From contig AP024680.1 in NCBI GenBank assembly GCA_025999275.1, positions 556,522 to 620,521 on the forward strand: a DNA stretch of 64,000 nucleotides, read 5' to 3'. Positions 20,096 through 60,095 of this stretch are shown piece by piece. The number at the start of each line of letters is the position of its first letter. Position 1 is the stretch's first letter. The DNA comes from Patescibacteria group bacterium (GTDB lineage: Bacteria; Patescibacteriota; Microgenomatia; UBA8517). The position numbers and the translations under genes were made by a program. The notes beneath the pieces were generated by a model. The model was given only the letters and a program-made list of their open reading frames with translations, was not told where the DNA came from and did no database searches.

Positions 20096-20194
20096 GTAGC
20101 AAGTAGCACGTAGTAAGTAGTAAGGGAAAGGAATATAGATTTAGGATTTAGGATTTAGGATTTAGGATTTAAGAATTATGAATAATGAATTAAG
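20096..20194. repeat. intergenic modular repeat, locus A: GTAGCAAGTAGCACGTAGTAAGTAGTAAGGG module, (GATTTAG)x5 heptad array at 20138..20172, then GAATTATGAATAATGAATTAAG module
   Basis: The same modules recur, in either orientation, at 32724..32850, 36369..36555, 53711..53985, 59761..60095 and 63822..63859. Confidence 0.7.
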
Positions 20195-20325
20195 AAAGAC
20201 GGGTAAAAGTGCCTGTTTCAACAACGGGCCCATTATTAACACCCACTTGTTTGCAAAATATTAAACCTGCATTAATATCTATCTTCATCTATCTATTTAT
20301 CCTTTTTTAAGATATAATAGCTCCT

Positions 20326-21201
20326 ATGGCTAAAACAAAGGAAGAAAAAATAACAAGAGTTATTGCTAAAAATGATGATGGCTCAATACAAATAACCTTC
20401 AGTGTGCCTAAAGGAATTGTGGCCAAAGCTGAAGAAAAAGCTTTAAGCGAGATAGGGAAGGACATACAAGTTCCCGGATTCAGAAAAGGAAAAGCGCCAA
20501 TCTCAAAAGTAAAAGAAAATATTCGTCAAGAAGAACTAATTGAAAAAATACTCACTAACACTGTTCTTCCAGCTTTAAGAGAAGCATTTGAAGAAGAAAG
20601 AATAAAACCCATTGTTTATCCAAAATTTGAACTAGTCTCCATCAAAGAGGGTGAAGATTGGCAAGTTAGAGTACTCACTTGCGAGCTTCCAGATGTGGAT
20701 CTGGCAAATTATAAAGAAAAAATAATTAAAGACTTAAAACCAAACCAAATTTGGACTCCAGACAAAAAGGGAGAAGAGAGCACCAAAGAAAGCCGAGAAG
20801 AAAAAGAACAAAAAGTGATTGAGTCTTTGATTAAAAATATAGATATAAAAATTCCAAATCTTTTAATAGAAGAGGAAGTTAATAGCCGTCTATCACAACT
20901 TTTGGAAAGAATAGAAAAGCTTGGGCTAAGTTTGGAAAAATATTTGGAATCGATAGGAAAAACTGCCCAGAGCTTAAGAGAAGAATACGAAAAACAAACA
21001 AAAGAAGCCATTGCTCTTGAATTAATCCTTAACAAAATAGCTCAACAAGAAAATATAAAAGTAGAAGAAAAAGAAGTTGATGAAATATTAAAAATATCAG
21101 GAGAGAATCTTAATAACAAAGATGACCTGCAAAGGAGAGAACTGGTAAAAAATATAATCTCAAGAAGAAAAGCTCTAGAATTTTTAACCTCTTTGATATA
21201 A
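20326..21201 (+). CDS. tig: trigger factor, short form lacking the central FKBP-type PPIase domain
   Basis: Ribosome-binding signature VPGFRKGKAP in the N-domain plus a C-terminal helical-arm domain. Only 291 aa. Confidence 0.6.
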   Translation: MAKTKEEKITRVIAKNDDGSIQITFSVPKGIVAKAEEKALSEIGKDIQVPGFRKGKAPISKVKENIRQEELIEKILTNTVLPALREAFEEERIKPIVYPKFELVSIKEGEDWQVRVLTCELPDVDLANYKEKIIKDLKPNQIWTPDKKGEESTKESREEKEQKVIESLIKNIDIKIPNLLIEEEVNSRLSQLLERIEKLGLSLEKYLESIGKTAQSLREEYEKQTKEAIALELILNKIAQQENIKVEEKEVDEILKISGENLNNKDDLQRRELVKNIISRRKALEFLTSLI

Positions 21202-21225
21202 AATAATTAGGCTGCCAATAATAAG

Positions 21226-21825
21226 ATGGCAAAATCTGATCTTCATAATAGAAAAGGAAAGAGAAATTATGTTGAAAACCTCAGGGAAAATGATGATTTT
21301 CTTACTTCTTTGGCCTCAAATATCAACCCCCTTGATCTGATTCAAGAGATCGTTGGAATCCAAAAAACAAATGAGGAATATGCAAAAAAAGATTTTAGGC
21401 CCGGCGAATCAATAGAAATATCATCAATCAAGCCATCCGAAAGAAGTTTTTTTAACTTGCCAACCGAGTTTAGTATCTTTAGCCAAGAAAGAAGAGAAAC
21501 TGAAAGAAAAATCGCCGAACTTAAAGCTGAGCTTAAAGCAATTATCAATGAGATAAAGTTGTTGGCAAAATCAACAGAAAATGTAAAAGAAGAAATTAAA
21601 GCAATACCTGAACAGGCACCTGAGGACGCTGGTACTTATCATCTTTTCTTCTTCGAGCAGATATTAAAAATTGTAAGAAACGCTCGTCTTCAAATAGAAA
21701 AAGCCTCTGTTTGGCTCGAGGCCTCAAGCAAAAGATCTCGTATGAAATATTGGACAAGGTATAAAAAGCATGGCTCAAGTTTTCTTCTTTCTGCTGATCA
21801 CTATCTCACCAGATCCGCGGGTTAG
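21226..21825 (+). CDS. hypothetical coiled-coil protein
   Basis: Clean ORF with host-like composition, predicted coiled coil (ELKAELKAIINEIKLL), no recognisable domain. Confidence 0.35.
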   Translation: MAKSDLHNRKGKRNYVENLRENDDFLTSLASNINPLDLIQEIVGIQKTNEEYAKKDFRPGESIEISSIKPSERSFFNLPTEFSIFSQERRETERKIAELKAELKAIINEIKLLAKSTENVKEEIKAIPEQAPEDAGTYHLFFFEQILKIVRNARLQIEKASVWLEASSKRSRMKYWTRYKKHGSSFLLSADHYLTRSAG

Positions 21826-21896
21826 TCAAATGACAAGGACGGACCTTGTCAATAAAGCTTGCAGATTCTCTACTGTTAACATAAAATATGTAACAA

Positions 21897-21970
21897 GGAC
21901 GGTTAGCTCAGTTGGTTAGAGCGTTCGCTTGACGTGCGAAAGGTCAGGGGTTCGAGTCCCTTACCGTCCA
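21897..21970 (+). tRNA. tRNA-Val (anticodon GAC)
   Basis: Acceptor GGACGGT/ACCGTCC, anticodon stem-loop TTCGC-TTGACGT-GCGAA, T-loop TTCGAGT. Confidence 0.8.
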
Positions 21971-22269
21971 CAGTTTTGGAAAATTTAGATTGTCGGGTAA
22001 TGGCACCCGCCGCGCCCACCCCGCGGCGAGTGTTGCAAAGCCCTGTTTATACACCCAAAAAAGACACCGCAATTAAAGAAAAAAAGAAAAACGCAAAAAA
22101 TTTTAACGTCCTAAAACTCAAATGGCGCAATCTGTTGGACACAGAATTGTGCCATCAAAAAAGCAATCCCTTTTTGCTGTGTCCAATAAACCAATAAAAA
22201 TATATCAATTTTCTGGAGGCAAAAGCTACATTTTTTGCTTTTCTGTAAAAAAATTGATATACTACGATT

Positions 22270-23349
22270 ATGCCCGAAGATATAACCAGTGTTAAACAAG
22301 GTATACAAGAAGTAAATCCAGTAGTGGATAAGTTGCGCGAACTCAACCCAATAGAAAAGTTAAGGTCAACTCTAATGGAAGAACATCACCCATACGGGTT
22401 ACTTTTGATGTCAGCGCCTTTTATTTCTGCTGCAGGACCAACGGCATATCACATTGATGATTTAGGATTATCTTCATCTTCACTTTTAGTTTACAGTTCA
22501 TCTGATACAAACCACGGTCAACCAGGAAAATTATTGAAAGACTTTAGTAGTGCGGGTGCACTTGGTTTATTCTCTTCTGGTCATAGCCCTGAAGCCTCAT
22601 TAACTTCTGCAGGTTTTGCTTTATCATCTATGGGTAACGAAGAAGATCAGTTACATATGCCAATTGCAGCGTTGCTCTCCGTTTTAGGTGCTTCGGCTGG
22701 GTCTGATCCAAATTTGGCAAATGCTTTTCGTAATTCGTTTGAATTTACAGCCCCTCAAGCAGAGGCTATGGTTGTTCCTCTTTCGGCTTCCGCCAAACAA
22801 AAAGAAGTCAAATCTTTTTCTCTTAACAGAATGGAAATACGAGATAACAAATTAAGAGTTGGGAGCGTGGTTGCAAATGTATGCGTTTATATTGGGCGAA
22901 AGGAATTTACAATTACTGGTGGAGGGTTAGATAAGCCTTATGTGATTAAACCTGGCGATATTTTTTTAACACTCCATGTTAATCAGAGTGGAGAACAATA
23001 TGCTCAAATGGAACCTATTGCCCGTGTTCGAGCAATTAAGCGCGACTTTCAGAAATTATGTAGATTATTGGAAAAACCTGATCAATTTGAATTATCCGAT
23101 GAACAAAGACAGCAAATAGAGAGATTAAGGGAAGCACCTATGATAGGCGTTAGTCATCTTGTCAAACTGATTGCCGCACGAGGTTTGCCAACCTGGGGTA
23201 TTGAGTCTCTACCAAAACTTGTTCAACAATTTCACACTTTTGATTCCCAAGTTGTTTCTAAATTATTTGGTGGTCAACGGAAGGTGAATTCAATGGACAT
23301 TAGAGTGATGTTTCTCCCCGCATCTATGCGAAGCCAGATAATGGCTTAG
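22270..23349 (+). CDS. hypothetical protein, compositionally atypical (Ser/Ala/Gly/Leu-rich, Lys-poor), in a tRNA-bracketed segment
   Basis: 359-aa clean ORF. Local GC and codon usage differ from the flanks. No recognisable catalytic motif. Confidence 0.4.
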   Translation: MPEDITSVKQGIQEVNPVVDKLRELNPIEKLRSTLMEEHHPYGLLLMSAPFISAAGPTAYHIDDLGLSSSSLLVYSSSDTNHGQPGKLLKDFSSAGALGLFSSGHSPEASLTSAGFALSSMGNEEDQLHMPIAALLSVLGASAGSDPNLANAFRNSFEFTAPQAEAMVVPLSASAKQKEVKSFSLNRMEIRDNKLRVGSVVANVCVYIGRKEFTITGGGLDKPYVIKPGDIFLTLHVNQSGEQYAQMEPIARVRAIKRDFQKLCRLLEKPDQFELSDEQRQQIERLREAPMIGVSHLVKLIAARGLPTWGIESLPKLVQQFHTFDSQVVSKLFGGQRKVNSMDIRVMFLPASMRSQIMA

Positions 23350-23515
23350 CATAATTGCTCGGCGGAGCCGAGCAAAAATCGCGCGCGTGAAACATAAGCG
23401 AGGTCGAAAGCTGGGTGTGAAGATGACACTCTAAGTTGATAGAGGCACTCGCAGTGCTACCTTTGAAATTCAGTCCGAATTTTTTCGTAAAGAGTCCACT
23501 CAATTTGTATATAGA

Positions 23516-23589
23516 GGGCCCGTAGCTCAGCTGGCTAGAGCGCCTGGCTGGCAGTCAGGAGGTCAGGGGTTCGATCCCCCTCGGGTCCA
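23516..23589 (+). tRNA. tRNA-Ala (anticodon GGC) with G3:U70 identity pair
   Basis: Acceptor GGGCCCG/CGGGTCC (G3-T70), anticodon stem-loop CCTGG-CTGGCAG-TCAGG, T-arm AGGGG-TTCGATC-CCCCT. Confidence 0.8.
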
Positions 23590-23730
23590 CTACAAAATTT
23601 AGTCATCTATCTACAAAACACTAAATAAAACTAGTAAATTTAAATTATTTTTTTTAAAATTACATTTTTAAAAGTATCGCATTGTATAATTGTCTAGATT
23701 TTTACCCACAAAAGTTTTAATATATCAACA

Positions 23731-25473
23731 ATGGATCAAAACGAAAAATTAAGAGCACTGAGACACACTACCGAACACGTTTTAACTCAGGCTGTTTTGA
23801 GGCTTTTCCCCAAAGTAAAAATGGCTATGGGGCCAGCAACCGATGAGGGTTTCTATTTTGACTTTGACCCCAATGGAGAACAAATTAGCGAAAAAGATTT
23901 TCCCAAAATAGAAGCAGAAATGGAAAAAATTATCAAAGCAGATTTACCACTAAAAAGGGAGGAAATTACTCTTGACGAGGCAAGAAAAGTTTTTGCAGAT
24001 AATCCCTACAAACTTGAATGGTTAGATGAAATTGAAAAAAGAAAAGAAAAACCCACAATCTATAGAACCGGAAATGAATTTGTAGATCTTTGTGCAGGAC
24101 CCCATGTTAGCTCAACTGGCAAAATAAAAGCCTTCAAACTTATCTCTATCGCCGGTGCCTACTGGCATGGAGACGAAAGAAATAAAATGTTAACCCGAAT
24201 TTATGGAACTGCTTTTGAAACAAAAGAAGAGCTTGAAAAATACCTAAAAAATTTAGAGGAAGCAAAAAAAAGAGACCATAGAAAAATCGGCAAAGACTTA
24301 GATCTATTCCTGCTAACAGACGAAGTTGGACCAGGGCTTCTAATACTTAAGCCAAAAGGGGCTATTATAAGGCGAGAAATAGAAAACTTCATAATTGAAG
24401 AACAAACTAAAAGAGGGTATCAGCATGTCTACACCCCTCATATCGGCCGAAAACAACTTTGGAAAACCTCCGGCCATTGGGATTTATACCGGGACAAGAT
24501 GTATTCGCCAATGAAAATAGACCAAGATGAATATTTAGTCAAACCAATGAATTGTCCATTCCATATGGCAGTTTACAAATCTCAAAAAAGAAGCTATAGG
24601 GAACTCCCATTAAGAATTGCTGAAATTGCAACAGTTTATCGCTATGAAAAACCTGGAGAACTTTCAGGAATGTTAAGAGTAAGACACATCACTCAAGATG
24701 ACGCACATATTTTTTGCCGAGAAAACCAAGTAGTTAATGAATTTATAGGGGTATTTGATTATATGTCCTACTTGCTTGAAACATTTGGCCTTAATAATTA
24801 CTACCTAAGGCTAGGTCTAAGATCTCCAAAAGAAAAATATCTTGGCAATGACGAAATATGGGAAAAGGCAGAAAAAGAAATAGTAAAGGCAATAGAGAAA
24901 AAAGGATTGAAATATGTTAAAAGCTATGGAGATGCGGCTTTTTATGGACCAAAGCTTGATGTAATAATTAAAGATGCCATAGGAAGAGAGTGGCAGTGCG
25001 GAACAATACAAGTTGATTTTATGCTTCCAGAGCGTTTTGGTCTTGAGTATGTAAACGAAAAAGGAGAGATAGAAAGACCGGTTTTAATCCACAGAGCTCC
25101 ACTAGGTTCAATCGAGAGGTTTCTTGCCATAATAATTGAAAATTACGCAGGCAACTTTCCAGCTTGGTTATCACCCATACAAGTAAGAGTTTTGCCTATT
25201 ACCGAAAGGAATGTCAAATATGCCCAAGATATTACAGAAAAACTTGAGACAAATGGTATAAGAGCCGAAATCGATTTAAGGAATGAAACCTTGGGAGCAA
25301 AAATACGCGACGCACAACTTGAAAAAGTATATCTAATGGTTATAGTAGGTGACAAAGAAGAAAAAGAAAATAAAGTAGCTGTAAGAAACAGACACGGAAA
25401 AGATAACGGTTTGCAAACAATTGAGTCTCTAATCGAAGACCTTAACAATAAAATAAAACAAAAGCTTCCGTAA
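23731..25473 (+). CDS. thrS: threonine--tRNA ligase (class II), short N-terminus
   Basis: Editing/second-additional domain (HTTEHVL, CAGPH) and catalytic core HIGRKQLWKTSGHWDLYRDKMY, motif 2/3 region, C-terminal anticodon-binding domain. Confidence 0.9.
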   Translation: MDQNEKLRALRHTTEHVLTQAVLRLFPKVKMAMGPATDEGFYFDFDPNGEQISEKDFPKIEAEMEKIIKADLPLKREEITLDEARKVFADNPYKLEWLDEIEKRKEKPTIYRTGNEFVDLCAGPHVSSTGKIKAFKLISIAGAYWHGDERNKMLTRIYGTAFETKEELEKYLKNLEEAKKRDHRKIGKDLDLFLLTDEVGPGLLILKPKGAIIRREIENFIIEEQTKRGYQHVYTPHIGRKQLWKTSGHWDLYRDKMYSPMKIDQDEYLVKPMNCPFHMAVYKSQKRSYRELPLRIAEIATVYRYEKPGELSGMLRVRHITQDDAHIFCRENQVVNEFIGVFDYMSYLLETFGLNNYYLRLGLRSPKEKYLGNDEIWEKAEKEIVKAIEKKGLKYVKSYGDAAFYGPKLDVIIKDAIGREWQCGTIQVDFMLPERFGLEYVNEKGEIERPVLIHRAPLGSIERFLAIIIENYAGNFPAWLSPIQVRVLPITERNVKYAQDITEKLETNGIRAEIDLRNETLGAKIRDAQLEKVYLMVIVGDKEEKENKVAVRNRHGKDNGLQTIESLIEDLNNKIKQKLP

Positions 25474-25522
25474 AGAATATTGATTTAAATGATTTTTTCT
25501 AGTAAAATGAATTAGGTTTTTT

Positions 25523-26098
25523 TTGAAGAATAAATTGAAAGACATCTTAAGCAACTGGCGAATAAATCAAAAAATAAGAGCTGAGAAAGTAAGAGTTATT
25601 GATGCTGACAAGAAATTTGTCGGCATTATGACTTTAAAAGAGGCTCTTGAAAAAGGCCAAGAATTAGGCCTTGATTTAGTAGAGATTGCGCCAAAAGCCA
25701 ATCCTCCAGTTGTAAGGATGATTGAACTCGGCAAGTTTAAATACGAGCAGGAAAAGCGGCTTAAAAAAGAGAAAAAGGGTGCCAAGGGTGGTGAAACAAA
25801 GGAAATAAGATTCTCACCCTTTATTGCTGAGGCTGATTATCAAAACAGAATTGAAAGAATAAGAGAATTTTTAAAAGAAGGAAATAAAGTAAGAATAGTT
25901 GTCAAATTCAAAGGTGCACAAATGGGTAGTAAAGATTTTGGGTATGATTTAATAAAAAGAGTAATATCAGAGGTTGGCCTACCTATAAATATAGATATGG
26001 AACCAAAATTCTTAGGAAGACATTTAGCTAGCGTCATTTCACCTATGTCAAAATCAAAAAAGGAAGGAGAAAACAAAAATGCCGAAAACCAAAACTAA
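25523..26098 (+). CDS. infC: translation initiation factor IF-3. The start is uncertain because infC often uses a non-ATG start.
   Basis: KIRAEKVRVIDADKKFVGIMTLKEALEKGQELGLDLVEIAPKANPPVVRMIELGKFKYEQEK plus C-domain RIVVKFKGAQM. Precedes rpmI-rplT as in the canonical operon. Confidence 0.85.
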   Translation: MKNKLKDILSNWRINQKIRAEKVRVIDADKKFVGIMTLKEALEKGQELGLDLVEIAPKANPPVVRMIELGKFKYEQEKRLKKEKKGAKGGETKEIRFSPFIAEADYQNRIERIREFLKEGNKVRIVVKFKGAQMGSKDFGYDLIKRVISEVGLPINIDMEPKFLGRHLASVISPMSKSKKEGENKNAENQN

Positions 26099-26282
26099 AA
26101 AAATTATTACCAAAAGGTTTAGATTAACTAAAAAGGGAAAATTATTACGAAAACAAGGGTTTAAAAGGCATCTAAATGCTAAAAAATCGTCTAAAAGAAA
26201 GAGATCTTTGGGAAGAACAGTTAAAACACATAAAACCTGGGCCAAAAAAATAAAAAGGGCTCTAGGTAAAAATAAGTCATAA
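26079..26282 (+). CDS. rpmI: 50S ribosomal protein L35
   Basis: MPKTKTKKIITKRFRLTKKGKLLRKQGFKRHL..., basic 67 aa, overlaps the infC 3' end. Confidence 0.85.
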   Translation: MPKTKTKKIITKRFRLTKKGKLLRKQGFKRHLNAKKSSKRKRSLGRTVKTHKTWAKKIKRALGKNKS

Positions 26283-26283
26283 A

Positions 26284-26622: not shown

Positions 26623-26688
26623 CATCTTTAATTTACACCAGCTTTTGCTTTAGAATAATAAAGTAAGGCTGGGGTAAAGTGTTTTTTT

Positions 26689-27728: not shown

Positions 27729-27729
27729 A

Positions 27730-30086: not shown

Positions 30087-32702
30087 TCAAATAACAGGAG
30101 TAGGGGAAGGGGTTAAATTAAAACCGGGGCTTTGAGTGGGGACAGGAGTACTTGGCACATAGTCCCAATTAACACCCACGCCTATTGTTATCTCTTTTTC
30201 TGACTGATGGCCATCTTTATCTTTCGCTTTCACCTTTAGCTTATGAACGCCATTATCCAAGTTAACAATAACATTATATGGTGGTTTATCAAAAGATTTA
30301 AAGATTTTGCCATCTATCTCAAGAGAAACATTTTTAATATCAGAGGTTGAATCAGCTAATAACATCACCTCAAAACTATTAGACAAATTAGAATCCTTGT
30401 CTTTAGGATTTTTAAAATCAACCATCAACGGATTTGAAGAACCACAATAATCAGTTGGCGGATGATATCTGGGATCGGTTTGGGTAGATAACCAATTTAA
30501 TATTGCCTCCTGCCATTTGTTTGGCCCGCCACCTGAGGTTGGATCTTCTTCCTTAAAAATAAAGTATTCTTTTTCCTCATAATTTCCACTCTCAATATCA
30601 GCTGGGGTTGCTATTTTACCATCTGTTTTACAAACTTTTAATTTAACATGGACAGGATCATCGCCGGGTTCAGTACCTTTAATAAAGATTTCAGGTCTTG
30701 AGGGAAAACCATCATGAGCTCTATAACCCGAAACAACATCCACATCCACAGTTTCAATCCCATCAGGCCGCTCAAAACCTATATTTGGTTTGCCTGAAAG
30801 AGATTCAAGCAATATCCTTCTCCAGATAGGAGATGCTCCCGAAACTCCTGAAGCCACTTGTTTCATCTCCGAATTATCATTGTTGCCAACCCAAACCCCA
30901 ACCATTACTTGAGTATTCCCTCCAATAGCCCAGTTATCTCTCTTATCATTAGTTGTTCCTGTTTTTACCATTACAGTCCTTCCAGGAATATTTAAAAGAG
31001 AATTAGGACCAAAGACATCTTTTCTAGCATCATTATCAGAAAGAATATTGGCCACTAGATAAGCAACCTGAGGGCTAATTACTGGATTTAGCTTTTTGGG
31101 TTTTACCTCTTCTAGAACTTTGCCATTTATATCCTCAACTTTCAAAATAGCTATCGGATTGACACGATAGCCCTGATTAACAAACGCGCAATAAGCTCCT
31201 GTCAACTCTAACAACCTTACCTCACCACCTCCCAATGTCAAAGAAAGGCCCAACTTGCTTAAAGTATCTTCTGATGGCTCAAGCGAATTAATACCCAAAT
31301 CATAAGCCAAACTCAGAACATTTTTAATTCCAACCATTGCTAATATCTTTACAGCCGGAATATTAAGAGAATTTCCCAAAGCATATCTGACCTGAACAGG
31401 ACCGCGATACTTACCATCATAATTAGCAGGTTTATAAGGTTTACCCCCCTGACCAGTCCCAAACTCAGTTGGAACATCCATTAAAAGGGTAGAAGGGGTA
31501 TAACCCTTCTTAAAAGCAGCTGCGTAAGTTATTGGTTTTATTGCAGATCCGGGCTGACGTAGAGAAAGAGTTACATTCACCTGACCATCATAATTTGGGT
31601 CAGAAAAGTTTTTAGAACCAACCATAGCCAAGATCTCTCCTGTCTCGGGATCTAAAACAACAGAAGCCCCATTTGTGATATTTAACTTCTCAACTTTAGA
31701 GATTTCTTCCTTAACAATACTTTCAGCTTTCTCTTGAAGTTTTAAATCAAGAGTCGTCGTAACACGCAAACCCCCATTCTCAACCACTTCTTGGCCATAC
31801 TTTTCCTCTAGTATCTTCTGTATATACTGAACAAAATGAGGAGCTTTAAAACCCACCTCTCTTGGTTTAAATGTAACATTGGGCAATTGATCTAAAGCCT
31901 CCTTCTCCTGTTCGGCAGTAATGTAACCATCCTCCCTCATTCTACGCAAGACTGCTTTGGTTCTTTCAATATAAGCTTTAGGCGTAGAAGAGTAGGGAGA
32001 ATAAACAGAAGGCCGTTGAGGAAGCCCAGCCAATATTGCTGATTCTACCAAATCAAGATCTTTAACTTTTTTGCCAAAATACATTTCAGAAGCCGTTTCC
32101 ACACCCCACGCTGTTCCTCCATAAGGAGCTTCGTTTAAGTACATCTGCAAGATCTGATCTTTCGTATATTTTCTCTCTATTTGAACTGCCAAGATAAACT
32201 CCCTGATCTTGCGAAAAATTGTCCTTTCAGAACTCAAGAGAGTGTTCTTTACCAGCTGTTGAGTTAAAGTTGAACCACCCTGAAGTTTGTGACGAAACAC
32301 AATATTAAAGATCGCTCGCAAATAGCCAGTGACATCAAATCCTTGGTGTTTGTAAAAATTCTTATCTTCGATTGCCACTGTCGCTTGTTTTAAATAAAGG
32401 GGGATATCTTCAAAAGCAACTGGCGTTCTTCTTTTGTCTTGAAATATGTCGTATAAAACTTCTCCATTCCTATCTAGAATCTTAGTAGAATAACCTTCTC
32501 GACGAACAACTTTATCAGGAGAGGGAAGATTAAAAGCAAAAAGAGGAATCAAAATCAAAAAGGCAATAAATAAGGCCAATAAAGAGAGGAAAGCAATTTT
32601 GGCAAAAAACAAAACCCTTCGACTTTTTTCAAGCCGTTGGGAACTAGAAACAGTAAAGCGCGAGATTTTTTTCCTCCTTAAAACTCTTTTCCAATTTGCC
32701 AT
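30087..32702 (-). CDS. mrcA: class A penicillin-binding protein (GT51 transglycosylase plus transpeptidase) with C-terminal Ig-like extension. The start is moved to the internal Met (MANWKR) because the ORF-track N-terminus is encoded by the intergenic repeat.
   Basis: GT51 motifs (EDKNFYKHQGFD, QGGSTLTQQLVKN). Transpeptidase motifs SAIK (SxxK), SLN, KTGT. Single N-terminal TM segment. Confidence 0.9.
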   Translation of the reverse strand: MANWKRVLRRKKISRFTVSSSQRLEKSRRVLFFAKIAFLSLLALFIAFLILIPLFAFNLPSPDKVVRREGYSTKILDRNGEVLYDIFQDKRRTPVAFEDIPLYLKQATVAIEDKNFYKHQGFDVTGYLRAIFNIVFRHKLQGGSTLTQQLVKNTLLSSERTIFRKIREFILAVQIERKYTKDQILQMYLNEAPYGGTAWGVETASEMYFGKKVKDLDLVESAILAGLPQRPSVYSPYSSTPKAYIERTKAVLRRMREDGYITAEQEKEALDQLPNVTFKPREVGFKAPHFVQYIQKILEEKYGQEVVENGGLRVTTTLDLKLQEKAESIVKEEISKVEKLNITNGASVVLDPETGEILAMVGSKNFSDPNYDGQVNVTLSLRQPGSAIKPITYAAAFKKGYTPSTLLMDVPTEFGTGQGGKPYKPANYDGKYRGPVQVRYALGNSLNIPAVKILAMVGIKNVLSLAYDLGINSLEPSEDTLSKLGLSLTLGGGEVRLLELTGAYCAFVNQGYRVNPIAILKVEDINGKVLEEVKPKKLNPVISPQVAYLVANILSDNDARKDVFGPNSLLNIPGRTVMVKTGTTNDKRDNWAIGGNTQVMVGVWVGNNDNSEMKQVASGVSGASPIWRRILLESLSGKPNIGFERPDGIETVDVDVVSGYRAHDGFPSRPEIFIKGTEPGDDPVHVKLKVCKTDGKIATPADIESGNYEEKEYFIFKEEDPTSGGGPNKWQEAILNWLSTQTDPRYHPPTDYCGSSNPLMVDFKNPKDKDSNLSNSFEVMLLADSTSDIKNVSLEIDGKIFKSFDKPPYNVIVNLDNGVHKLKVKAKDKDGHQSEKEITIGVGVNWDYVPSTPVPTQSPGFNLTPSPTPVI

Positions 32703-32723
32703 CAAAATAATTCTAGCATAAAA

Positions 32724-32850
32724 AGTAGTAGCAAGTAGCAAGGATAAAGAAATTAAGAATTATTAGTTAAGAATTATGAATAATGAGATATGGAGTATGG
32801 GAAGATAATTCAAAATTCAAAATTCAGAATTCAAATTTAAAAATTAAAAG
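32724..32850. repeat. intergenic modular repeat, locus B: AGTAGTAGCAAGTAGCAAGG, TTAAGAATTATGAATAATGAG, (AATTCAAAA)n block
   Basis: Same modules and order as locus A. Its 5' part overlaps the ORF-track N-terminus of the PBP gene. Confidence 0.65.
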
Positions 32851-32901
32851 TATTCTTACAACTTCTGTCTTTTGAATCTTAAACTATCCTTTTTACTGGA
32901 C

Positions 32902-32945: not shown

Positions 32946-32973
32946 TTTACTCAAAATAAATTTGAGCTAAAAT
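32946..32973 (+). promoter_or_regulatory. candidate promoter TTTACT-N16-TAAAAT for tyrS
   Basis: Hexamers at 32946..32951 and 32968..32973, 8 nt upstream of the tyrS ATG. Confidence 0.35.
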
Positions 32974-36244: not shown

Positions 36245-36368
36245 AAACCACAAATTCAATTAAAAATTAAAGTGAAAAATCCAAAGTTAACTCAAACAAT
36301 TAAGTTGCTAGATGCCCTCCAATAGAGCAACCAGCTTGTCCCCAGTAGATAGTATAGAAATTTTAAAC

Positions 36369-36555
36369 TCTAAATCTTCCCTTACTACTTACTACTTACT
36401 CCTGTTTTCAATCTTCCCATAATTCATGCCCCATTATCCATAATTCATAAACCATAAATCTTAAATCTTGATCCCTTTCTCACTCGCTACTTTCTGCCTG
36501 CTATTTATTTGCCACAGTCTTTAATTTTTAACTTTGAATTTTGAACTTTGAACTC
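36369..36555. repeat. intergenic modular repeat, locus C (inverted orientation): CCCTTACTACTTACTACTTACTCC, CATAATTCAT modules, CTAAATC units, (TTTTGAACTTTGAA)n
   Basis: 36379..36402 is the exact reverse complement of 20104..20127. The other modules are reverse complements of the locus A/B modules. Confidence 0.7.
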
Positions 36556-36612
36556 TTATCCTAAAAAACAATATTCTATTGCCTCTAACTACCACAAGCC
36601 AAAAGTCAATCC

Positions 36613-36682
36613 TTAACTGTTAATCGCCAATTGTTAATCGTTAATTGTTAACCGTTAATTGTTAATTGTTAGATGTTAATTG
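36613..36682. repeat. tandem heptad array (TTAATTG)x10, with variants TTAATCG, TTAACCG, TTAGATG, CCAATTG, overlapping the -35 of the rpmF promoter
   Basis: Ten contiguous 7-nt units counted directly. The last unit supplies TTGTCA of the downstream promoter. Confidence 0.75.
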
Positions 36683-36708
36683 TCATCTTCCTGTTGCATT
36701 AATATAAT
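36680..36708 (+). promoter_or_regulatory. candidate sigma70 promoter TTGTCA-N17-TATAAT for rpmF-nusB-acp-like-rnc
   Basis: Hexamers at 36680..36685 and 36703..36708, 24 nt upstream of the rpmF ATG. Confidence 0.5.
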
Positions 36709-37258: not shown

Positions 37259-37260
37259 CT

Positions 37261-37518
37261 ATGGAAAAGGATGACAAAAAATTTAAAAAATACTTAGAAA
37301 TAACTAGAAAGGTTCTTTCCCAAATATTGGGAACAGACTCTGTTGATATCCAACTTGAAGATTCGTTCACTGAAGATCTTCACATGGGGCCTACCGAAAT
37401 TGCCGATTTCATTCAACTAATGAACGACAATGGTTTTAGCTTAGATGATCTTGATCTTGAGGAGATAGATACTGTAGAAGAATTTGTCGATTATCTTGTT
37501 AACAATGAAGAAGTTTGA
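37261..37518 (+). CDS. acyl carrier protein-like protein lacking the conserved phosphopantetheine-attachment serine
   Basis: 85 aa, acidic. FTEDLHMGPTEIADFIQLMNDNGF aligns with the ACP [23 protein letters not shown] block, with Pro in place of the DSL Ser. Sits in the conserved acpP-rnc position. Confidence 0.45.
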   Translation: MEKDDKKFKKYLEITRKVLSQILGTDSVDIQLEDSFTEDLHMGPTEIADFIQLMNDNGFSLDDLDLEEIDTVEEFVDYLVNNEEV

Positions 37519-38179: not shown

Positions 38180-38211
38180 TAATAAACCAAATAGATTAAA
38201 ATTAAAGCCTT

Positions 38212-38433
38212 ATGATTAAAATCAGACTTTCAAGAGTAGGAAAAAACAACAACCCATTTTATAGAATTGTTGCTATAGAAGAAACCAAAAAGAGAGAGGG
38301 AAAAGCTAATAATGTAATAGGGTTCTGGAACCCAAAAGAAAATAAAATTGAAATTAATAAAGAAAAACTCGATAAGTGGTTAAAAATGGGAGCTGTTTTA
38401 AATCAATCAGTTAAAAAATTGCTCGAAATTTAA
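38212..38433 (+). CDS. rpsP: 30S ribosomal protein S16
   Basis: MIKIRLSRVGKNNNPFYRIVAIEETKKREGKANNVIGFWNP. Confidence 0.85.
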   Translation: MIKIRLSRVGKNNNPFYRIVAIEETKKREGKANNVIGFWNPKENKIEINKEKLDKWLKMGAVLNQSVKKLLEI

Positions 38434-38438
38434 TTATT

Positions 38439-38669
38439 ATGGAAGAATTGCTTAAATTCATAATTTCTTCTATCCTACCAGGTAAGGAAATTCCTATAAC
38501 CAAAGAGGAAACCGAAGATGGCTTAATTACTTTTCTAGTTAAACCCAAAGAAGAAGACGCTGGAATTCTAATAGGAAAAGATGGTAAAGTTATTAAAGCA
38601 ATCAGTCAAATCTTAAAAATAAAAGCTACTTTAAACAAGAAAAAAGTAATCATAAAAGTCGTTTCATAA
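38439..38669 (+). CDS. KH-domain RNA-binding protein (KhpA/YlqC-like)
   Basis: 76 aa, GILIGKDGKVIKAISQILK KH motif. Conserved position after rpsP. Confidence 0.65.
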   Translation: MEELLKFIISSILPGKEIPITKEETEDGLITFLVKPKEEDAGILIGKDGKVIKAISQILKIKATLNKKKVIIKVVS

Positions 38670-38683
38670 AACACTAAATTCCC

Positions 38684-53680: not shown

Positions 53681-53710
53681 TAGTATTTAATTTAAACTAT
53701 TTTCAACAAA

Positions 53711-53985
53711 CTAGCAAGGGGAAAGAATCAAGATTTATGAATTATGGATTAAGGGATAGAAATTATGGGGAAATAATCCAAAAGTTAAAATTCAAAAGTT
53801 TACTTAGATAATTAAATAATTTTAAATTTTGAATTGTATTTTTGAATTTTGCCTTTTGACTTTTAAGTTAATTTTTTTAGATATTAGAGTTTGAGATTTG
53901 AAAAGTTTATATAACTTTTAATTTTTAACTTTGAATTTTGAATTATTTTCCCATGCCCCATCCTCCATTATTCATTATTCATTTC
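53711..53985. repeat. intergenic modular repeat, locus D. A ~275 bp imperfect palindrome built from the family modules: left arm CTAGCAAGGGGAAAG, GAATTATGG, AATTCAAAAGTT; right arm AACTTTGAATTTTGAATT, CATTATTCATTATTCAT.
   Basis: The right-arm modules are reverse complements of the left-arm modules. Confidence 0.65.
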
Positions 53986-54004
53986 CTATTGCTATAATCC
54001 AAGT

Positions 54005-54613
54005 ATGAATTCTTTTTTAATTGTCTCAAAAGACGAGGAAAAAATAGAAGAAAAAATAGAAGAAATCACTAAAACAAATAGCGCCATTAAATCAAATTTC
54101 AGCCTAAAAAAAATTAATGACGCAAGAGAACTAAAACAACTAACCAAACTTTCTCACAATCAAAAGCTTGCCATCATTATAAGAAACATAGAAGAAGCCT
54201 CCACCCCAGCCTTAAATGCAATTCTTAAAAATATAGAGGAACCAAATCAAAACATCATTTTCATACTAACAACTAAAAATATAAAATCTGTTTTACCCAC
54301 AGTAGTCTCAAGATGCCAAATTATCAAATTAAAATCAGAGGAAAAGATAGATGCCAAAATAGCCTCTAAATACTTAGAATTTCTAAATCTCAAAAAAGGC
54401 TCACAACTTCTCTTCATTAACAAGATACAGAAAAGAGAAGATGCATTAAAATTCCTCAAGGAACTCATTCTGACATGCCAAGAAAACATTCATCAAGAAG
54501 AAAATCGTGAGAAAATCGCCAATTGTCTTATCCAAGCACATCAAGCCATTTTAGCCATAAAGGCTAATGGCAATGTCAAACTACAGTTGACAAGAATGGT
54601 GATCAACATCTAG
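54005..54613 (+). CDS. holB: DNA polymerase III clamp-loader delta-prime-like subunit, minimal form without P-loop
   Basis: ALNAILKNIEEPNQNIIFILTTKNIKSVLPTVVSRCQIIKL matches the sensor-1/SRC region of delta-prime. Confidence 0.55.
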   Translation: MNSFLIVSKDEEKIEEKIEEITKTNSAIKSNFSLKKINDARELKQLTKLSHNQKLAIIIRNIEEASTPALNAILKNIEEPNQNIIFILTTKNIKSVLPTVVSRCQIIKLKSEEKIDAKIASKYLEFLNLKKGSQLLFINKIQKREDALKFLKELILTCQENIHQEENREKIANCLIQAHQAILAIKANGNVKLQLTRMVINI

Positions 54614-54633
54614 GATTACTACTGTCAAAAAAC

Positions 54634-56624
<1,991 letters not shown>

Positions 56625-56707
56625 CCAAAATAGTTATTGACAAGACAAAGAAGACTTCCATAAAATAAAACACAACTCGGCTAACGAGTTGATTTTTTTA
56701 TTAAAAA

Positions 56708-58948
56708 ATGAATGACCTTTCTCTAATCGAAAGAGGAATGCTAGCTGCTGTTTTAGGAGTAGCTGTCATAAGCTTGGCATATGCTTTCTGGATTTGGAAA
56801 AATGTAACCTCCTTTCCAAAAGGATCAGAAAAGATGCAGTCAATATGGAAGGCAATTAAGCTGGGAGCAGAAGGTTACCTTAGAAAACAACTCAGAACTA
56901 TCATCATAGCCATAATAGTATTAACAACACTACTATTTCTTAGTGTTTATATAGTCCCTCCCTCAAAAGAGGCCGTGGCTATGTTTGGTGAATCTGCTGT
57001 CATTGTAGTGGCAATAGGAAGAGCAATTGCATTTATAATAGGCGCTTTATTTTCAACCATTGTTGGCCAACTGGGTATGAGGGTAGCAATTGAAGGCAAT
57101 ATTAGAGTTACTAACCAAGCAGTTAAAGGAAGTTATAACAAAGCTTTAACGGTGGCATATCGGTCCGGCACTTTTACAGGAATGTTAACTGACGGCTTGG
57201 GTTTATTGGGAGGTACTTTGATTTTTATAATCTTTGGCAAAGCAGCCCCTGATGCTCTTTTGGGTTTTGGTTTTGGAGGTACACTTGTAGCTTTATTTAT
57301 GAGAATTGGGGGTGGAATTTACACCAAAGCAGCAGATGTTGGAGCTGACCTTGTCGGGAAAGTAGAAAAAGATCTACCAGAAGACGATCCTAGAAATGCA
57401 GGTGTAATAGCCGACTTGGTAGGGGATAATGTTGGAGACTGTGCCGGAATGGCTGCTGATGTCTTTGAATCATATGAAGTTACTATTGTTTCTGCCCTAA
57501 TTCTGGGGCTGGTTTTGGTCCATCTAACAGGAAATAACTTCTGGATAATATATCCTTTGGTAGTAAGAGCAATAGGAGTTCTCTCGTCTATAATTGGCAC
57601 TCTTGCAGTTCCGGTATGGGAAAGGGTAAAAGTTAAATTTATCAAGGCTAAAGATGCCGAAGAAGCCATGTTTAGATCATACGAGCTCTCAAGCCTAATT
57701 ACTGTCTTCGGATCTCTAGCTTTTGCAATGTTCTACACAGGAGAATGGAAATTAGCTTTATTAAACACTATTGGGGTCTTACTAGCAGTCTTCTTCAATC
57801 CATTGACTTCCTACTTCACTTCCTACAACAAAAAGCCTGTCTTGGAAATAGCAAATTCCACTAAAACCGGTACCGCAACAACAATTCTTTCCGGACTTGG
57901 CGTAGGAATGGAAGCAAGTGTTTTCAGTATCATTGCCATTGCTCTTGCAATTGCCTCAAGTGTGGTAATTTATGCAGGACATGATCCAATATACATGCTC
58001 TACGGAGTAGCAATGATTGGTATTGGTATGCTTTCGCTAACCGGCAACAATGTTGCCATGGATTCATTTGGCCCAATTGCTGACAATGCCAACGGAATCG
58101 GAGAAATGGCGGGTGTTAGCAAAAAAGCTTGGAAGATAATGGCTGATCTGGATGCTGTAGGAAACACCACCAAAGCTATAACCAAACAAGTAGCAATAGC
58201 ATCAGCTGTCATTGCTGCAACCAGCTTGTTTTTCTCTTACGTAACCGATGTTGGTATAGTACAAGCAAGGTTGGGATTTGAACCAATCAAATCAATCCGT
58301 ATTTCAACCCTAGAAGGAATCATTGGCTTTTTATTGGGTGGAGCTCTACCTTTCCTTTTCTCTGCTTATTCAATTAAAGCCGTAGCAAAAGCCGCCAACA
58401 AAGTTGTAGAAGAAGTAAGAAAACAATTTGCCATTAAAGGAGTGTTGGAAGGCAAAAAGACTCCCGAATACGACAAAGTAGTTGCCATCACAACCGCTGC
58501 CGCTCAAAAAGAGCTGTTGACCTTGGTGGCTATATCTGTATCGCTACCACTGTTTGTAGGAGCAATATTTCAAGTTGAAGCTCTTGGAGCATTTTTGGCA
58601 GGAGTAATATTGGTTGGTCAACTCATGGCCGTATTTATGGCTATTGCTGGAGGAGCGCTCGATAACACCAAAAAATTTATTGAGGATGGAAATCTAGGAG
58701 GAAAAGGCTCTTTTTCTCACAAAGCAAGTGTTGAGGGCGACACAGTAGGAGATCCTCTAAAAGATACCGCTGGCCCTGCATTAAACCCAATGATCAAAGT
58801 GGTCAATTTAGTAAGCTTGATCGCAGCCCCAGTTATTGTACAATATAAAAACAAAAATGAACTTTTGGTGTTCGGGTTAATAATGATTTTTATACTAGCT
58901 TGGGCTATCTCCAAAACCCACAAAGAATCGCAAACAACAATAGGTTAA
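56708..58948 (+). CDS. hppA: membrane-bound proton/sodium-translocating pyrophosphatase
   Basis: About 16 TM segments, GGIYTKAADVGADLVGKVE and DNVGDCAGMAADVFES signatures. 746 aa. Confidence 0.9.
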   Translation: MNDLSLIERGMLAAVLGVAVISLAYAFWIWKNVTSFPKGSEKMQSIWKAIKLGAEGYLRKQLRTIIIAIIVLTTLLFLSVYIVPPSKEAVAMFGESAVIVVAIGRAIAFIIGALFSTIVGQLGMRVAIEGNIRVTNQAVKGSYNKALTVAYRSGTFTGMLTDGLGLLGGTLIFIIFGKAAPDALLGFGFGGTLVALFMRIGGGIYTKAADVGADLVGKVEKDLPEDDPRNAGVIADLVGDNVGDCAGMAADVFESYEVTIVSALILGLVLVHLTGNNFWIIYPLVVRAIGVLSSIIGTLAVPVWERVKVKFIKAKDAEEAMFRSYELSSLITVFGSLAFAMFYTGEWKLALLNTIGVLLAVFFNPLTSYFTSYNKKPVLEIANSTKTGTATTILSGLGVGMEASVFSIIAIALAIASSVVIYAGHDPIYMLYGVAMIGIGMLSLTGNNVAMDSFGPIADNANGIGEMAGVSKKAWKIMADLDAVGNTTKAITKQVAIASAVIAATSLFFSYVTDVGIVQARLGFEPIKSIRISTLEGIIGFLLGGALPFLFSAYSIKAVAKAANKVVEEVRKQFAIKGVLEGKKTPEYDKVVAITTAAAQKELLTLVAISVSLPLFVGAIFQVEALGAFLAGVILVGQLMAVFMAIAGGALDNTKKFIEDGNLGGKGSFSHKASVEGDTVGDPLKDTAGPALNPMIKVVNLVSLIAAPVIVQYKNKNELLVFGLIMIFILAWAISKTHKESQTTIG

Positions 58949-58949
58949 T

Positions 58950-59744
58950 TTATCTTGTACAAAATATACTACCAACTTTTGATATCTCACTCAAAGTTGT
59001 TTTATCTGAATAAAACAAACTTGCCGTACCACCGTCAAGATTAATTGCATCAGCAATTCCCAAATTAAAATCATTGGTAATTTTCTCTATTAAGGCAGGA
59101 AGCTCCTCAAGTGTTGGCCCTTCTAATAGATTATTAATCCCCCAGAAAACCAAAAACACCACTTTGTTCTCACCAGTAACAGCAACTACAACCCTTCTCT
59201 CATGATTATAATTACTTCTGATGTTAACAACGCTCCCATTTTCAAATAGCAAAGGACCGCTTTGAACAGCAATTCTTAAAGAATCTCTTGGCTTTTCTCT
59301 GGTGATTCTAGGAGTATCAAATATGTTAACCGAGAAAATTCCGTTAAAAAGCTGGTTTTTGCGCCAAGGAGAAATTTCTCCATATTCACTAATAAAAAGA
59401 CCTATTGGCCTGAAATTCTCATCATAAAATCCACCATTAATTACATTCTTGCAGCTAAATTTCTCCTTAAGATACTCACCTTTATCGCCTGATGAAAAAT
59501 TTGGGAAGAGAAATAATTTTTCGGGATCAGCTAGAAAATAATCAAAAAAATATTCACTTGAGTCAATCTTAACCTTTAGGGCAGGGGACTCTTCCTTTAA
59601 ACCTAGAATTTTATCTTCCTTATCATCATTCCCTACAACAGGAGATTTAAAAAACACTTTATTGCCAAAATATAAAGCAGTAAAAGCAAATAATAGCAAC
59701 AAAAATAAGAAATATACTTTCTTCATTTTAGGACATAATACCAT
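58950..59744 (-). CDS. secreted phosphodiester glycosidase-like (NAGPA-type) protein
   Basis: Signal/TM N-terminus. NGGFYDENFRPIGLFI and AINLDGGTASLFY resemble the phosphodiester glycosidase family. Confidence 0.45.
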   Translation of the reverse strand: MVLCPKMKKVYFLFLLLLFAFTALYFGNKVFFKSPVVGNDDKEDKILGLKEESPALKVKIDSSEYFFDYFLADPEKLFLFPNFSSGDKGEYLKEKFSCKNVINGGFYDENFRPIGLFISEYGEISPWRKNQLFNGIFSVNIFDTPRITREKPRDSLRIAVQSGPLLFENGSVVNIRSNYNHERRVVVAVTGENKVVFLVFWGINNLLEGPTLEELPALIEKITNDFNLGIADAINLDGGTASLFYSDKTTLSEISKVGSIFCTR

Positions 59745-59760
59745 AACTAGAAGGGGAGTG

Positions 59761-60095
59761 GTAACGAATTATGGGAACATAATTCAAAAGTTAAAAGTCA
59801 AAAGCCCAAACTACAAGCTAAAAGTCAAAAGTTTTTCTCCTAAATAATTTTAAATTTTGAATTGTTGGCCCAAGGCTAACCAGCCTAGGGCTGGTACTTT
59901 TTAATTTTGATTTTTGAATTTTGAATTATTTTCTCATACCCCTTAATTCATTATTCATAATTCTTAACTATTACTATCGTATCCGTGTACTAGTCTACGG
60001 AACCGGTTATCACTTCTCTTAAATCTTAAATCCATATTCCTCTCCCTTACTACTTTCTACATCCTACTTGCTACTATTTCCCCCTTTTACCCCTT
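59761..60095. repeat. intergenic modular repeat, locus E. A ~330 bp imperfect palindrome, interrupted at 59866..59898 by a GC-rich palindromic insert TTGGCCCAAGGCTAACCAGCCTAGGGCTGGTAC.
   Basis: Left arm GAATTATGG / AATTCAAAAGTTAAAAGTCAAAAG. Right arm TTTTGAATTTTGAATT / CATTATTCATAATTC / TAAATCTTAAATC / CTTACTAC..CTTGCTACT. 59943..59968 is the reverse complement of 20167..20192. Confidence 0.7.

Follow-up and report, generated by a model that had tools for sequence, protein, structure and literature searches.

Introduction

Tandemly repeated heptanucleotides are the most abundant intergenic tandem repeats across prokaryotes and have no known function; the reason for their prime period of seven is not known either (Mori et al., 2018, the SPADE survey; PMC6344855). 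As related in two later papers, heptanucleotides are the dominant class of long simple sequence repeats (SSRs) in many bacteria, and one proposal for them is that slippage depends on a polymerase footprint of 7 nt (Mrazek, 2007, via PMC4679880 and PMC4692102). Strains of Cyanothece show insertions and deletions in 7-nt steps, with contigs that end in heptamer assemblages (PMC4679880), and TTTTGAA/TTCAAAA arrays near promoters of Nostoc have modest effects on reporter expression (bioRxiv 10.1101/2022.06.06.494920). Here, we characterize heptanucleotide arrays that fill six intergenic spacers (loci A–F) in a 64,000-nt stretch of contig AP024680.1 from a Patescibacteria group bacterium, hereafter the window. 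GyrA and RecG place the window in Candidatus Woesebacteria of the candidate phyla radiation (CPR, or Patescibacteria). Their 7-nt register assigns the arrays to the intergenic tandem heptanucleotide repeats, a class that is known but lacks an explanation, and they add to it a new member that comes from the CPR and takes the form of a dispersed composite.

Several described systems resemble these elements in part. In common with the heptamer SSRs and short tandemly repeated repetitive (STRR) sequences, as far as these are covered in PMC6344855 and PMC4692102 (long SSRs, the SPADE class and the STRR sequences of Calothrix and Nostoc), the arrays of the window have an exact 7-nt unit, run head to tail and are intergenic; different heptamers lie side by side, the distribution across lineages is patchy, copy number apparently changes fast and the function is unknown. 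Unlike members of that class, they occur in a CPR host with a genome of ~0.8 Mb, their units (GTAGCAA, GATTTAG, GAATTAT, AATTCAA, GTTAATT) are not those of STRR1–3, and short arrays are chained into dispersed, in-phase arms of 100–200 nt with a fixed module order. STRR1–3 of heterocystous cyanobacteria have the units CCCCAGT, TTGGTCA and CAACAGT; with other units and a Woesebacteria (CPR) host, the present elements are not STRR sequences in the strict sense. The TAACTGA arrays of Beggiatoaceae, Cyanobacteria and Bacteroidetes (MacGregor, 2015; PMC4679880) likewise occupy spacers near gene starts as mixed heptamer assemblages, with near-identical repeat-filled spacers at more than one locus (Elizabethkingia), shorter repeat-free spacers in close relatives, contigs ending in repeats, and a unit that recurs in distant phyla. 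In ‘Maribeggiatoa’, however, they lie in the 5′ untranslated region (UTR) directly before start codons and in one orientation, suggesting translational control (PMC4679880), whereas the tracts here lie upstream of promoters and in both orientations, and many genes are apparently leaderless. The GGGAATC/GGGGAYT repeats of Xanthomonas and Nostoc (Rehm et al., 2015; PMC4692102) are also intergenic, occur between the same gene pairs in related strains, vary among strains in length and sequence, and include inverted pairs able to form stem-loops or cruciforms; those units are G-rich and form G-quadruplexes, whereas the units here are AT-rich, hold a single G and have no quadruplex potential. Finally, the multicopy elements of Geobacter metallireducens (Aklujkar et al., 2009; PMC2700814) form dispersed families of 49 and 16 copies with four to five tandem heptanucleotides each, some drawn as paired or inverted sites, so that heptamer arrays can be multicopy. 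Each of those is a single GC-rich array of ~28–35 nt that may also lie within genes, whereas copies here chain at least four different arrays, often into palindromes of ~300 bp.

The pneumococcal BOX element (boxA-boxB(n)-boxC), the repetitive extragenic palindromes (REP) and bacterial interspersed mosaic elements (BIME) of Escherichia coli, and the Correia elements of Neisseria offer a further comparison. These are modular, intergenic repeats with variable internal copy number, found in either orientation and with hairpin potential; they are species-specific and may carry promoter-like boxes at their ends. We know of no sequence similarity between them and the present elements, and to our knowledge none of them is built on a 7-nt register. 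Unlike Correia elements and other miniature inverted-repeat transposable elements (MITEs), and unlike REP, the family described here was seen with no target-site duplication (TSD) and no partner transposase, including the REP-associated tyrosine transposase (RAYT). Literature searches for heptamer repeats in CPR/Patescibacteria and for the literal repeat sequence found nothing relevant. The phenomenon is documented here in an ultra-small CPR genome, where spare DNA is little tolerated.

Results

An earlier note on this DNA had singled out six unusually long intergenic regions, and all six are present and carry an anomalous 7-nt periodicity. Self-identity at lag 7 was 0.42–0.51 in spacers A–F vs. 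~0.23–0.32 in eight other spacers. Against dinucleotide shuffles, the corresponding z-scores were 6.8 (A), 5.8 (B), 9.6 (C), 7.3 (D), 6.8 (E), and 3.8 (F), compared with −1.8 to +1.6 for the eight controls, several of which hold small genes and are still valid as controls of periodicity. When the dominant period was scanned along the window in sliding segments of 100 nt, period 7 marked exactly loci A–F, and periods 5, 6, and 8–11 marked nothing. Tandem Repeats Finder reported period-7 arrays at every module of all loci. An arm is a run of 14–29 consecutive heptamers in a single 7-nt register, with adjacent units 1–3 substitutions apart, and amounts to a chain of four to six different heptamer arrays, all of them non-coding and located between open reading frames (ORFs) in AT-rich spacers (23–33% GC). 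The modules defined in the earlier note are indeed enriched over shuffles, but all of them are heptamer arrays, a register that had been missed; a supposed 11-mer module, (AATTCAAAAGT)n, is really a 7-periodic AATTCAA/AAGTTAA array. The composite pattern GAATWATGRATWAWGR-N10-ATGRGRA occurs five times in the window, with none expected, while for the AATTCAAAATTCAAAA pattern 12 matches are expected by chance, as short AT-rich words recur.

The tracts make up most of the extra length of the six spacers, and the abnormal length is explained by the repeat family that fills them. Once small genes are counted, the longest gene-free spacers of the window are mostly heptamer loci, and no heptamer arrays were found in the gene-free spacers at 13182–13398, 15075–15295, and 21972–22269 (~200–300 bp). 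A filter of 100 amino acids for ORFs overlooks small genes within apparent spacers. According to Logan/JGI records, a SecG gene (~3618–3833) and a gene for ribosomal protein L35 (~26079–26282) lie inside apparent spacers, and synteny with the relative L128 points to probable acyl-carrier-like, S16, and KH-domain genes in the region of 37.3–38.7 kb, at 37259–37483 and 38180–38683.

Loci A–E form a dispersed sequence family. They have exact words of 17–26 nt in common, in either orientation and in the same module order, vs. at most 11 nt for a pair of control spacers and at most 14 nt for a locus against a control. Together with the shuffle controls, these words bear out the earlier view of a dispersed modular repeat family, found in either orientation, rather than chance low complexity. 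The same modules had been assigned in the same order to all six loci, which holds for A–E but not for F, which has no word longer than 11 nt in common with the other loci and was missed by the arm profile. F is a separate heptamer array outside the A–E sequence family. Two exact reverse-complementary matches had also been reported, 20104–20127 with 36379–36402 and 20167–20192 with 59943–59968; as written, these pairs contain 20 and 16 mismatches, and the exact matches are 20110–20128 (forward) with 36377–36395 (reverse), 19 nt, and 20169–20194 (forward) with 59942–59967 (reverse), 26 nt. A profile built with nhmmer from an alignment of seven arms recovered those arms plus one extra copy, G, and nothing else. 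A Logan contig from the same strain carries copy G at its far end, ~5.9 kb past the window and upstream of a Na+/H+ exchanger gene; a block of ~45 nt is common to A, the right arm of E, and G, roughly 85–90% identical by eye. Overall, copies are 76–89% alike. Neither the 20 kb at the start of the window nor the 4.7 kb adjoining it on the left held a further copy, and a long family-specific pattern matched no metagenome contig, adding neither copies nor strains.

The complete arm begins on the outside with a GGTAAAA/GTAGCAA array, followed by a GGGARAGGAATATR junction, a GATTTAG array, and a GAATTAT/GAATAAT block, and continues inward through (G)GGGnATGRGAAAATAATTC to a AATTCAAAA array. Arms are commonly paired head to head, with their AATTCAAAA ends facing each other: D is a palindrome; in E, the left arm is short and the right arm long; B and C retain remnants of a partner; and A consists of one arm. 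Collinearity of D and E holds throughout, from the left arm through a center containing a 25-nt exact word on the same strand to the right arm. Corresponding arms of D and E score higher (right arms, 80; left arms, 56) than do the two arms of D (37) or of E (43), which argues that the composites were copied as units; arm-to-arm pairing has not become homogenized since that copying. Unit number varies among copies, with five GATTTAG-type units in A, two in E, ~3 in C, and one in the left arm of D, and six AATTCAA units in B against three to four in D and E. Both D and E had been described as imperfect palindromes of ~300 bp. This is correct for D, but E is only partly palindromic (49-nt arms, 78% complementary), its right arm being far longer than its left. 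As single-stranded DNA, D and E fold more stably than shuffles (z = −3.2 and −3.9). Cruciform extrusion, proposed earlier, is doubtful given general knowledge of cruciform kinetics, since the arms are only 74–82% complementary and 70–125 nt apart.

Two segments keep the gene order of the window in relatives, one between pilB and the exchanger gene and the other between thrS and the pilus operon. The relatives compared were CP055308.1 (GyrA 86%, RecG 62%; loci L122 and L129), the Logan relative L123 (GyrA 86%), L126 (GyrA 93%), and L128 (RecG 74%). The pilB-holB spacer measures 324 bp here vs. 65 bp in L122 and 101 bp in L123, both array-free; the PBP1a-tyrS spacer, ~279 bp here, measures 83 bp in L128 and 104 bp in CP055308.1 (L129), again without arrays; and the recG-rpmF spacer of 488 bp is reduced to ~40 bp, with no array, in CP055308.1. 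Within the 22-kb syntenic loci of L122, L123, and L129 there was no period-7 signal anywhere and no match to the seven-arm profile. Two other relatives carry tracts of their own. Upstream of gyrA, L126 has a palindrome of ~300 bp (fold z = −10), and another heptamer tract, likewise of ~300 bp, stands at a contig end beside xerC; the units of these tracts (CCGATAG, CTGATGG, CAGACTT, TTGTATT) differ from those of the window, and the two tracts are roughly 90% identical to one another by eye. In L128, the recG-rpmF spacer is packed with heptamer arrays, including a GTTAATT array at the orthologous rpmF site that can be aligned with the one here and has three to four units vs. ~10. As read from these comparisons, the pattern is one of lineage-restricted gain, fast turnover, and high similarity within a genome, with some spacers that appear to have been occupied for long. 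Because syntenic relatives lack them, the tracts are dispensable. It had been argued that spacers this long in so compact a genome are probably functional; that argument loses its force, as the extra DNA is absent from relatives that have the same genes and core promoters, and the sequence at orthologous sites turns over.

Arrays of this kind are not confined to Woesebacteria. A single scan with the composite GAATTAT-type pattern, over one genome for each GTDB species, gave at least 120 sites, compared with roughly 2–14 expected from a composition-based estimate. The matches listed include Bacteroidota, Patescibacteria, Planctomycetota, Verrucomicrobiota, Cyanobacteriota, Chloroflexota, Thiotrichaceae, and others. 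Among them, the unconstrained N10 stretch is itself 7-periodic in two-thirds (80 of 120), an inverted partner lies within 250 nt in 32 of 120, and matches are typically built as stop codon-(GAATTAT)n-GAGAA-loop-TTCTC-(ATAATTC)n. Elsewhere in the listed loci, arrays of period 7 number 104 and comprise 71 distinct units, vs. 24, 12, 11, and 7 arrays of periods 5, 6, 8, and 9. The process is specific for length, not for sequence.

Heptamers were also encountered within genes. An identical 33-nt array, GAATTATGAATTAAGAATTAAGAATTATGGGGA, lies in frame and encodes KNYELRIKNYGE in CPR genes (L030:127–159; L057:2222–2254; L086, minus strand, ~5447; L039:2621–2653), the hosts being leucyl-tRNA synthetase genes of two CPR metagenome-assembled genomes (MAGs) and a TsaE-like gene of a Saccharibacteria MAG. 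Judged by Bacillus homologues, the array presumably occupies a variable segment and adds little length. As three 7-nt units equal seven codons, heptamer arrays seem able to enter CPR coding DNA.

Locus A is a single forward arm of 15 in-phase heptamers at 20096–20200 (nhmmer E = 4.8e-27). It opens with four GTAGCAA-type units (GTAGCAA GTAGCAC GTAGTAA GTAGTAA; 20096–20123), reported by Tandem Repeats Finder as an array at 20094–20124, and continues through the junction GGGAAAG GAATATA (20124–20137), four GATTTAG units plus GATTTAA (20138–20172; GATTTAG × 4.9 with 100% matches at 20138–20171 in Tandem Repeats Finder), and GAATTAT GAATAAT GAATTAA (20173–20193). The array starts 6 nt past the stop codon TAG at 20088–20090 and ends ~115 nt upstream of the tig −10 box TATAAT (20313–20318). 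The span given earlier for this locus, 19936–20325, does contain the array, but part of it (19938–20090) is a possible ORF of 51 amino acids that directly precedes the array. Locus B (32725–32888) contains a forward arm at 32725–32856 (E = 1.7e-26), in the order GTAGCAA × 2, a AAGAATTAT/GAATAAT block, TATGGGAAGATAATTC, and AATTCAA × 6 (AATTCAA × 6.1 at 32807–32849 in Tandem Repeats Finder), followed by a short degenerate inverted remnant (32863–32888). It lies between the divergent genes for PBP1a (ATG at 32702) and tyrS (TAAAAT at 32968–32973). The start of PBP1a is most likely 32702 rather than 32741; an extended −10, TGcTAGAAT, is found at 32710–32718 on the minus strand.

The main part of locus C, at 36252–36557 on the minus strand (E = 5.9e-29), includes 29 in-phase heptamers in reverse orientation (36351–36557), or ~1.5 units. 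Their order is a AATTCAAAG array, GTAGCGA, a GATTTAA array, GAATTAT/GGATAAT…GGGAAG, a GTAAGTA array, and GATTTAG. A short forward AAAGT/AATCCAAAG partner at 36252–36290 pairs with 36528–36549 (22 nt, 86% complementary). Nearer the promoter lies a forward (GTTAATT/GTTAATC)n array of ~10 units at 36606–36686, reported as TTAATTG × 10.1 at 36613–36683 by Tandem Repeats Finder. Locus D is a composite imperfect palindrome of ~285 bp, with both orientations represented, that fills the divergent pilB-holB spacer (53712–53996). It consists of a forward left arm (53712–53810; E = 3.7e-17), an inner inverted AATTTTG array (53818–53864), and a right arm on the minus strand (53905–53996; E = 1.5e-14). In the collinear composite E (59747–60087, both orientations), a short forward left arm (59747–59841; E = 7.1e-14) is followed by a center (59842–59889), with the 25-nt word in common with D at 59841–59865, and a long right arm on the minus strand (59890–60087; E = 1e-32) that has the full module set and a degenerate insert of 52 nt. 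At 59879–59895, the center of E also holds a GC-rich hairpin followed by a T-run (ACCAGCCTAGGGCTGGT ACTTTTT). No other part of the tracts is GC-rich, and the divergent genes on either side of this hairpin give no reason to expect a terminator there. Locus F is a small forward array of CAACAAT/CGAACAA-type heptamers at 63820–63861 (CAACAAT at 63831–63854 in Tandem Repeats Finder).

Independent short-read contigs (Logan, DRR290133) from this strain match the window with 100% identity, and both locus A and the right part of E recur in them. Three Logan contig ends fall within heptamer elements: a contig of 40,298 nt that starts at 13535 has its inferred end at ~53832, in the 25-nt word common to D and E, while contig L001 starts at window position 60031, in the right arm of E, and ends within copy G (L001:9810–9870).

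The genes flanking the loci are those for trigger factor (tig), PBP1a, tyrS, recG, rpmF-nusB-rnc, pilB, holB-gyrB, gyrA, and xerC, in agreement with the assignments of the earlier note. Its further point, that the loci sit at essential operons, is uninformative, because nearly every gene of the window is a housekeeping gene; the rest of the window holds more housekeeping genes and a type IV pilus operon. At rpmF, gyrA, xerC, pilB, and holB, the arrays end 0–25 nt upstream of predicted −35 boxes. The predicted rpmF promoter (TTGTCA, 36680–36685; 17-nt spacer; TATAAT, 36703–36708) matches the consensus at 11 of 12 positions, and the last unit of the GTTAATT array of locus C runs into its −35 box. 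The tract of E ends ~7 nt upstream of the gyrA −35 box TTGCTT (60094–60099; −10 TAAAAT, 60117–60122), and F starts ~25 nt upstream of the −35 box of xerC (TTGACA, 63794–63789 on the minus strand). At D, one outer end, TAGCAA (53712–53717), is on the minus strand the predicted pilB −35 box TTGCTA, and the other, TGCTATAAT (53990–53998), is the predicted extended −10 of holB. A TAnnnT box ends 5–9 nt before the start codon in 14 of the 35 genes with an upstream spacer, e.g., tig, tyrS, and the PBP1a gene, while a Shine-Dalgarno-like motif precedes three of the 35; such boxes of holB and of the PBP1a gene lie at 53993–53998 and, on the minus strand, 32710–32715. This suggests that leaderless or near-leaderless mRNAs are widespread in this Woesebacteria genome. 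Since transcripts probably begin at or near the start codon, the tracts would lie outside 5′ UTRs.

Matches to the promoter consensus within the tracts showed no enrichment over shuffles; we therefore abandoned a reading of the tracts as stacked, functional promoters. We also considered whether arrays might be seeded by local duplication of a −35 box; this would fit rpmF here but not L128, where another array stands between the GTTAATT array and the −35 box, and we leave it as speculation.

Discussion

Our preferred reading, which we hold with moderate confidence, is that the tracts are clusters of tandem heptanucleotides that grew by 7-nt slippage and were copied as composites among spacers upstream of promoters, and that they are dispensable and fast-evolving rather than conserved regulators. 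Strand slippage by 7 nt at a time would give rise to arrays and alter their size where they stand. Units changed by point mutation and then amplified anew would yield a chain of related heptamers (e.g., GTAGCAA to GATTTAG to GAATTAT to AATTCAA). Whole arms, or composites of arm, center, and arm, might subsequently be copied to other spacers by ectopic recombination, by template switching between arrays, or by a mobility function acting in trans, and each copy would drift in unit number afterward. The position just upstream of core promoters could simply be one where extra, nearly neutral DNA is tolerated, any effect on promoters being secondary. Several points weigh against this account. Simple slippage leaves the strong preference for period 7 over 5, 6, 8, and 9 unexplained. 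To account for the copying step, no TSD was seen at the ends of D and E and no transposase among the ~50 window proteins scanned. The spacers of relatives cannot be aligned with the window, so that no exact junction between empty and filled sites can be defined; the sole other assembly of the organism is 100% identical and provides no strain variation in 7-nt steps to compare; and the analysis covers ~75 kb of a genome of ~0.79 Mb. In addition, two or three species have the spacers upstream of gyrA, xerC, and rpmF occupied, two keep the GTTAATT array beside the rpmF promoter, and the outer modules supply −35-like TTGCTA boxes, all of which would fit a regulatory role as well.

A non-autonomous transposon, MITE-like or REP/BIME-like, is an unlikely but real contender. 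Its ~300-bp composite would be mobilized by a transposase encoded elsewhere, the single arms of A, B, and G would be decayed or truncated copies, and the heptamers would be a property of long terminal inverted repeats. D and E, at ~285–340 bp, are of suitable size, AT-rich and intergenic, have inverted TAGCAAG-type outer ends, and were copied as whole composites; the D and B spacers of relatives are short and array-free, the families are species-specific, and assemblies break at copies. Of the three readings put forward in the earlier note (promoter or UP-element cassettes, binding arrays for nucleoid proteins, and a MITE-like mobile family), the last in fact comes closest, given array-free relatives and copies 76–89% alike. 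However, the ends of D (…caacaaa / aatccaa…) and E (…accataa / atttccc…), read directly, show no TSD, and among the ~50 window proteins scanned there was no transposase, reverse transcriptase, Y1 nuclease, RAYT, or integrase other than xerC, the sole recombinase. The hallmarks of REP/BIME are likewise missing from the window: GTAG recurs just within the non-palindromic heptamer GTAGCAA, and there is no Y1_Tnp domain. Moreover, copies have ragged ends and differ chiefly in heptamer copy number, the majority are single arms, and orthologous spacers of sister species are filled by different heptamers, which would be unusual for independent MITE insertions. That the tracts are cis-regulatory DNA seems quite unlikely to us, and less probable than a transposon. 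They would serve as protein-binding arrays, UP-elements, or reservoirs of spare −35 and −10 boxes tuning the promoters of gyrA, holB-gyrB, rpmF, pilB, tyrS, and the PBP1a gene, bound perhaps by a nucleoid-associated or heptamer-specific protein. Beyond the occupied spacers and the kept rpmF array noted above, the closeness of tract ends to predicted −35 boxes would agree with this, as would the outer GTAGCAA module, which read outward is CTTGCTAC and falls on the −35 box of pilB and the extended −10 box of holB. Deletion of TTTTGAA/TTCAAAA arrays altered the behavior of the Nostoc recO promoter (bioRxiv 10.1101/2022.06.06.494920), and that unit is AATTCAA rotated. Yet syntenic relatives keep the genes and the gyrA core promoter without tracts, the heptamer sequence at the same site differs between sister species, orientation is inconsistent (A and B face tig and tyrS with the opposite end), promoter-like matches are no more frequent than in shuffles, and units spaced 7 bp apart do not keep in phase with the helical turn of DNA.

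A transcribed, structured RNA is very unlikely. The tracts would then act as long hairpin terminators or insulators, or as small RNAs that sponge a protein, e.g., via GGA motifs in (GATTTAG)n. Among the listed matches in other phyla, the arrays are usually located after a stop codon, as hairpins of the form (GAATTAT)n-loop-(ATAATTC)n; A and C begin 6–8 nt past stop codons, the predicted folds are stabler than those of shuffles, and the center of E offers a GC hairpin with a T-run. B, D, and E, however, lie between divergent genes and upstream of both promoters, where mRNA of the flanking genes should not cross, and for this reason they cannot be terminators. No promoter is predicted to drive the hairpin in E, and a search of the window with Rfam 15 found tRNAs only, with no tract match at the gathering score. 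The two arms of one locus are also less alike than their counterparts across loci, which indicates that the pairing was not kept up. That AT-rich spacers of low complexity resemble one another by chance, or that assembly created the family, is of negligible probability: the spacers are AT-rich and short AT-rich words do recur, but every shuffle control was exceeded, exact words of 17–26 nt stand against at most 11 nt in controls, profile E-values reach 1e-32, and locus A and the right part of E are found again, with 100% identity, in Logan contigs assembled independently.

A further reading holds that the tracts are the footprint of an active, lineage-restricted process that copies in 7-nt steps, building and spreading heptamer-armed palindromes, rather than passive debris of slippage. 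Hairpin-primed or template-switching synthesis and a dedicated enzyme acting in trans would be candidates. We consider this improbable, below a regulatory role and above a structured RNA. If true, it would explain why period 7 alone is favored, why each of the three array-bearing loci examined has its own tracts, one with two mutual copies, and why GAATTAT-type hairpins occur in many phyla and an in-frame 33-nt array in CPR genes; for tracing the factor responsible, no known comparative system would then be smaller than this one, an array-rich Woesebacteria genome of ~0.8 Mb whose syntenic relatives are array-free.

Returning to clusters built by slippage and copied as composites, the family is specific to this genome, and the close relatives L126 and L128 carry tracts partly of different units. 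The array-free relatives are slightly more distant, and the contrast provides a clean setting in which to look for genes or replication properties tied to heptamer proliferation. In practice, the tracts break short-read assemblies of CPR genomes, and spacers inflated by them can be mistaken for regulatory regions or RNA genes.

Additional Observations

Two non-coding regions beside the loci were found to be conserved among relatives. Downstream of the tract of E, the gyrA leader is conserved in four species (window 60088–60158; L126:331–404; L122:9926–10003; L123:9928–10003) and consists of a promoter (CCCTTGCTTTA-N17-TAAAAT), a short hairpin (GGCT…AGCC), and a T-run that ends ~7–10 nt before the ATG. 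This structure resembles an intrinsic terminator and could be an attenuator.

The second region separates xerC from a DUF5656 gene and is gene-free over ~0.9–1.3 kb in all relatives (window 63746–64000 plus L001:3716–4830; L122:13634–14556; L123:13634–14931). No ORF is conserved across the three, and neither a tRNA or tmRNA nor a credible Rfam match was found in it. L122 and L123 are 75% identical there over 668 nt, with shorter conserved blocks that reach the present strain, and the region may be an undescribed non-coding RNA gene.

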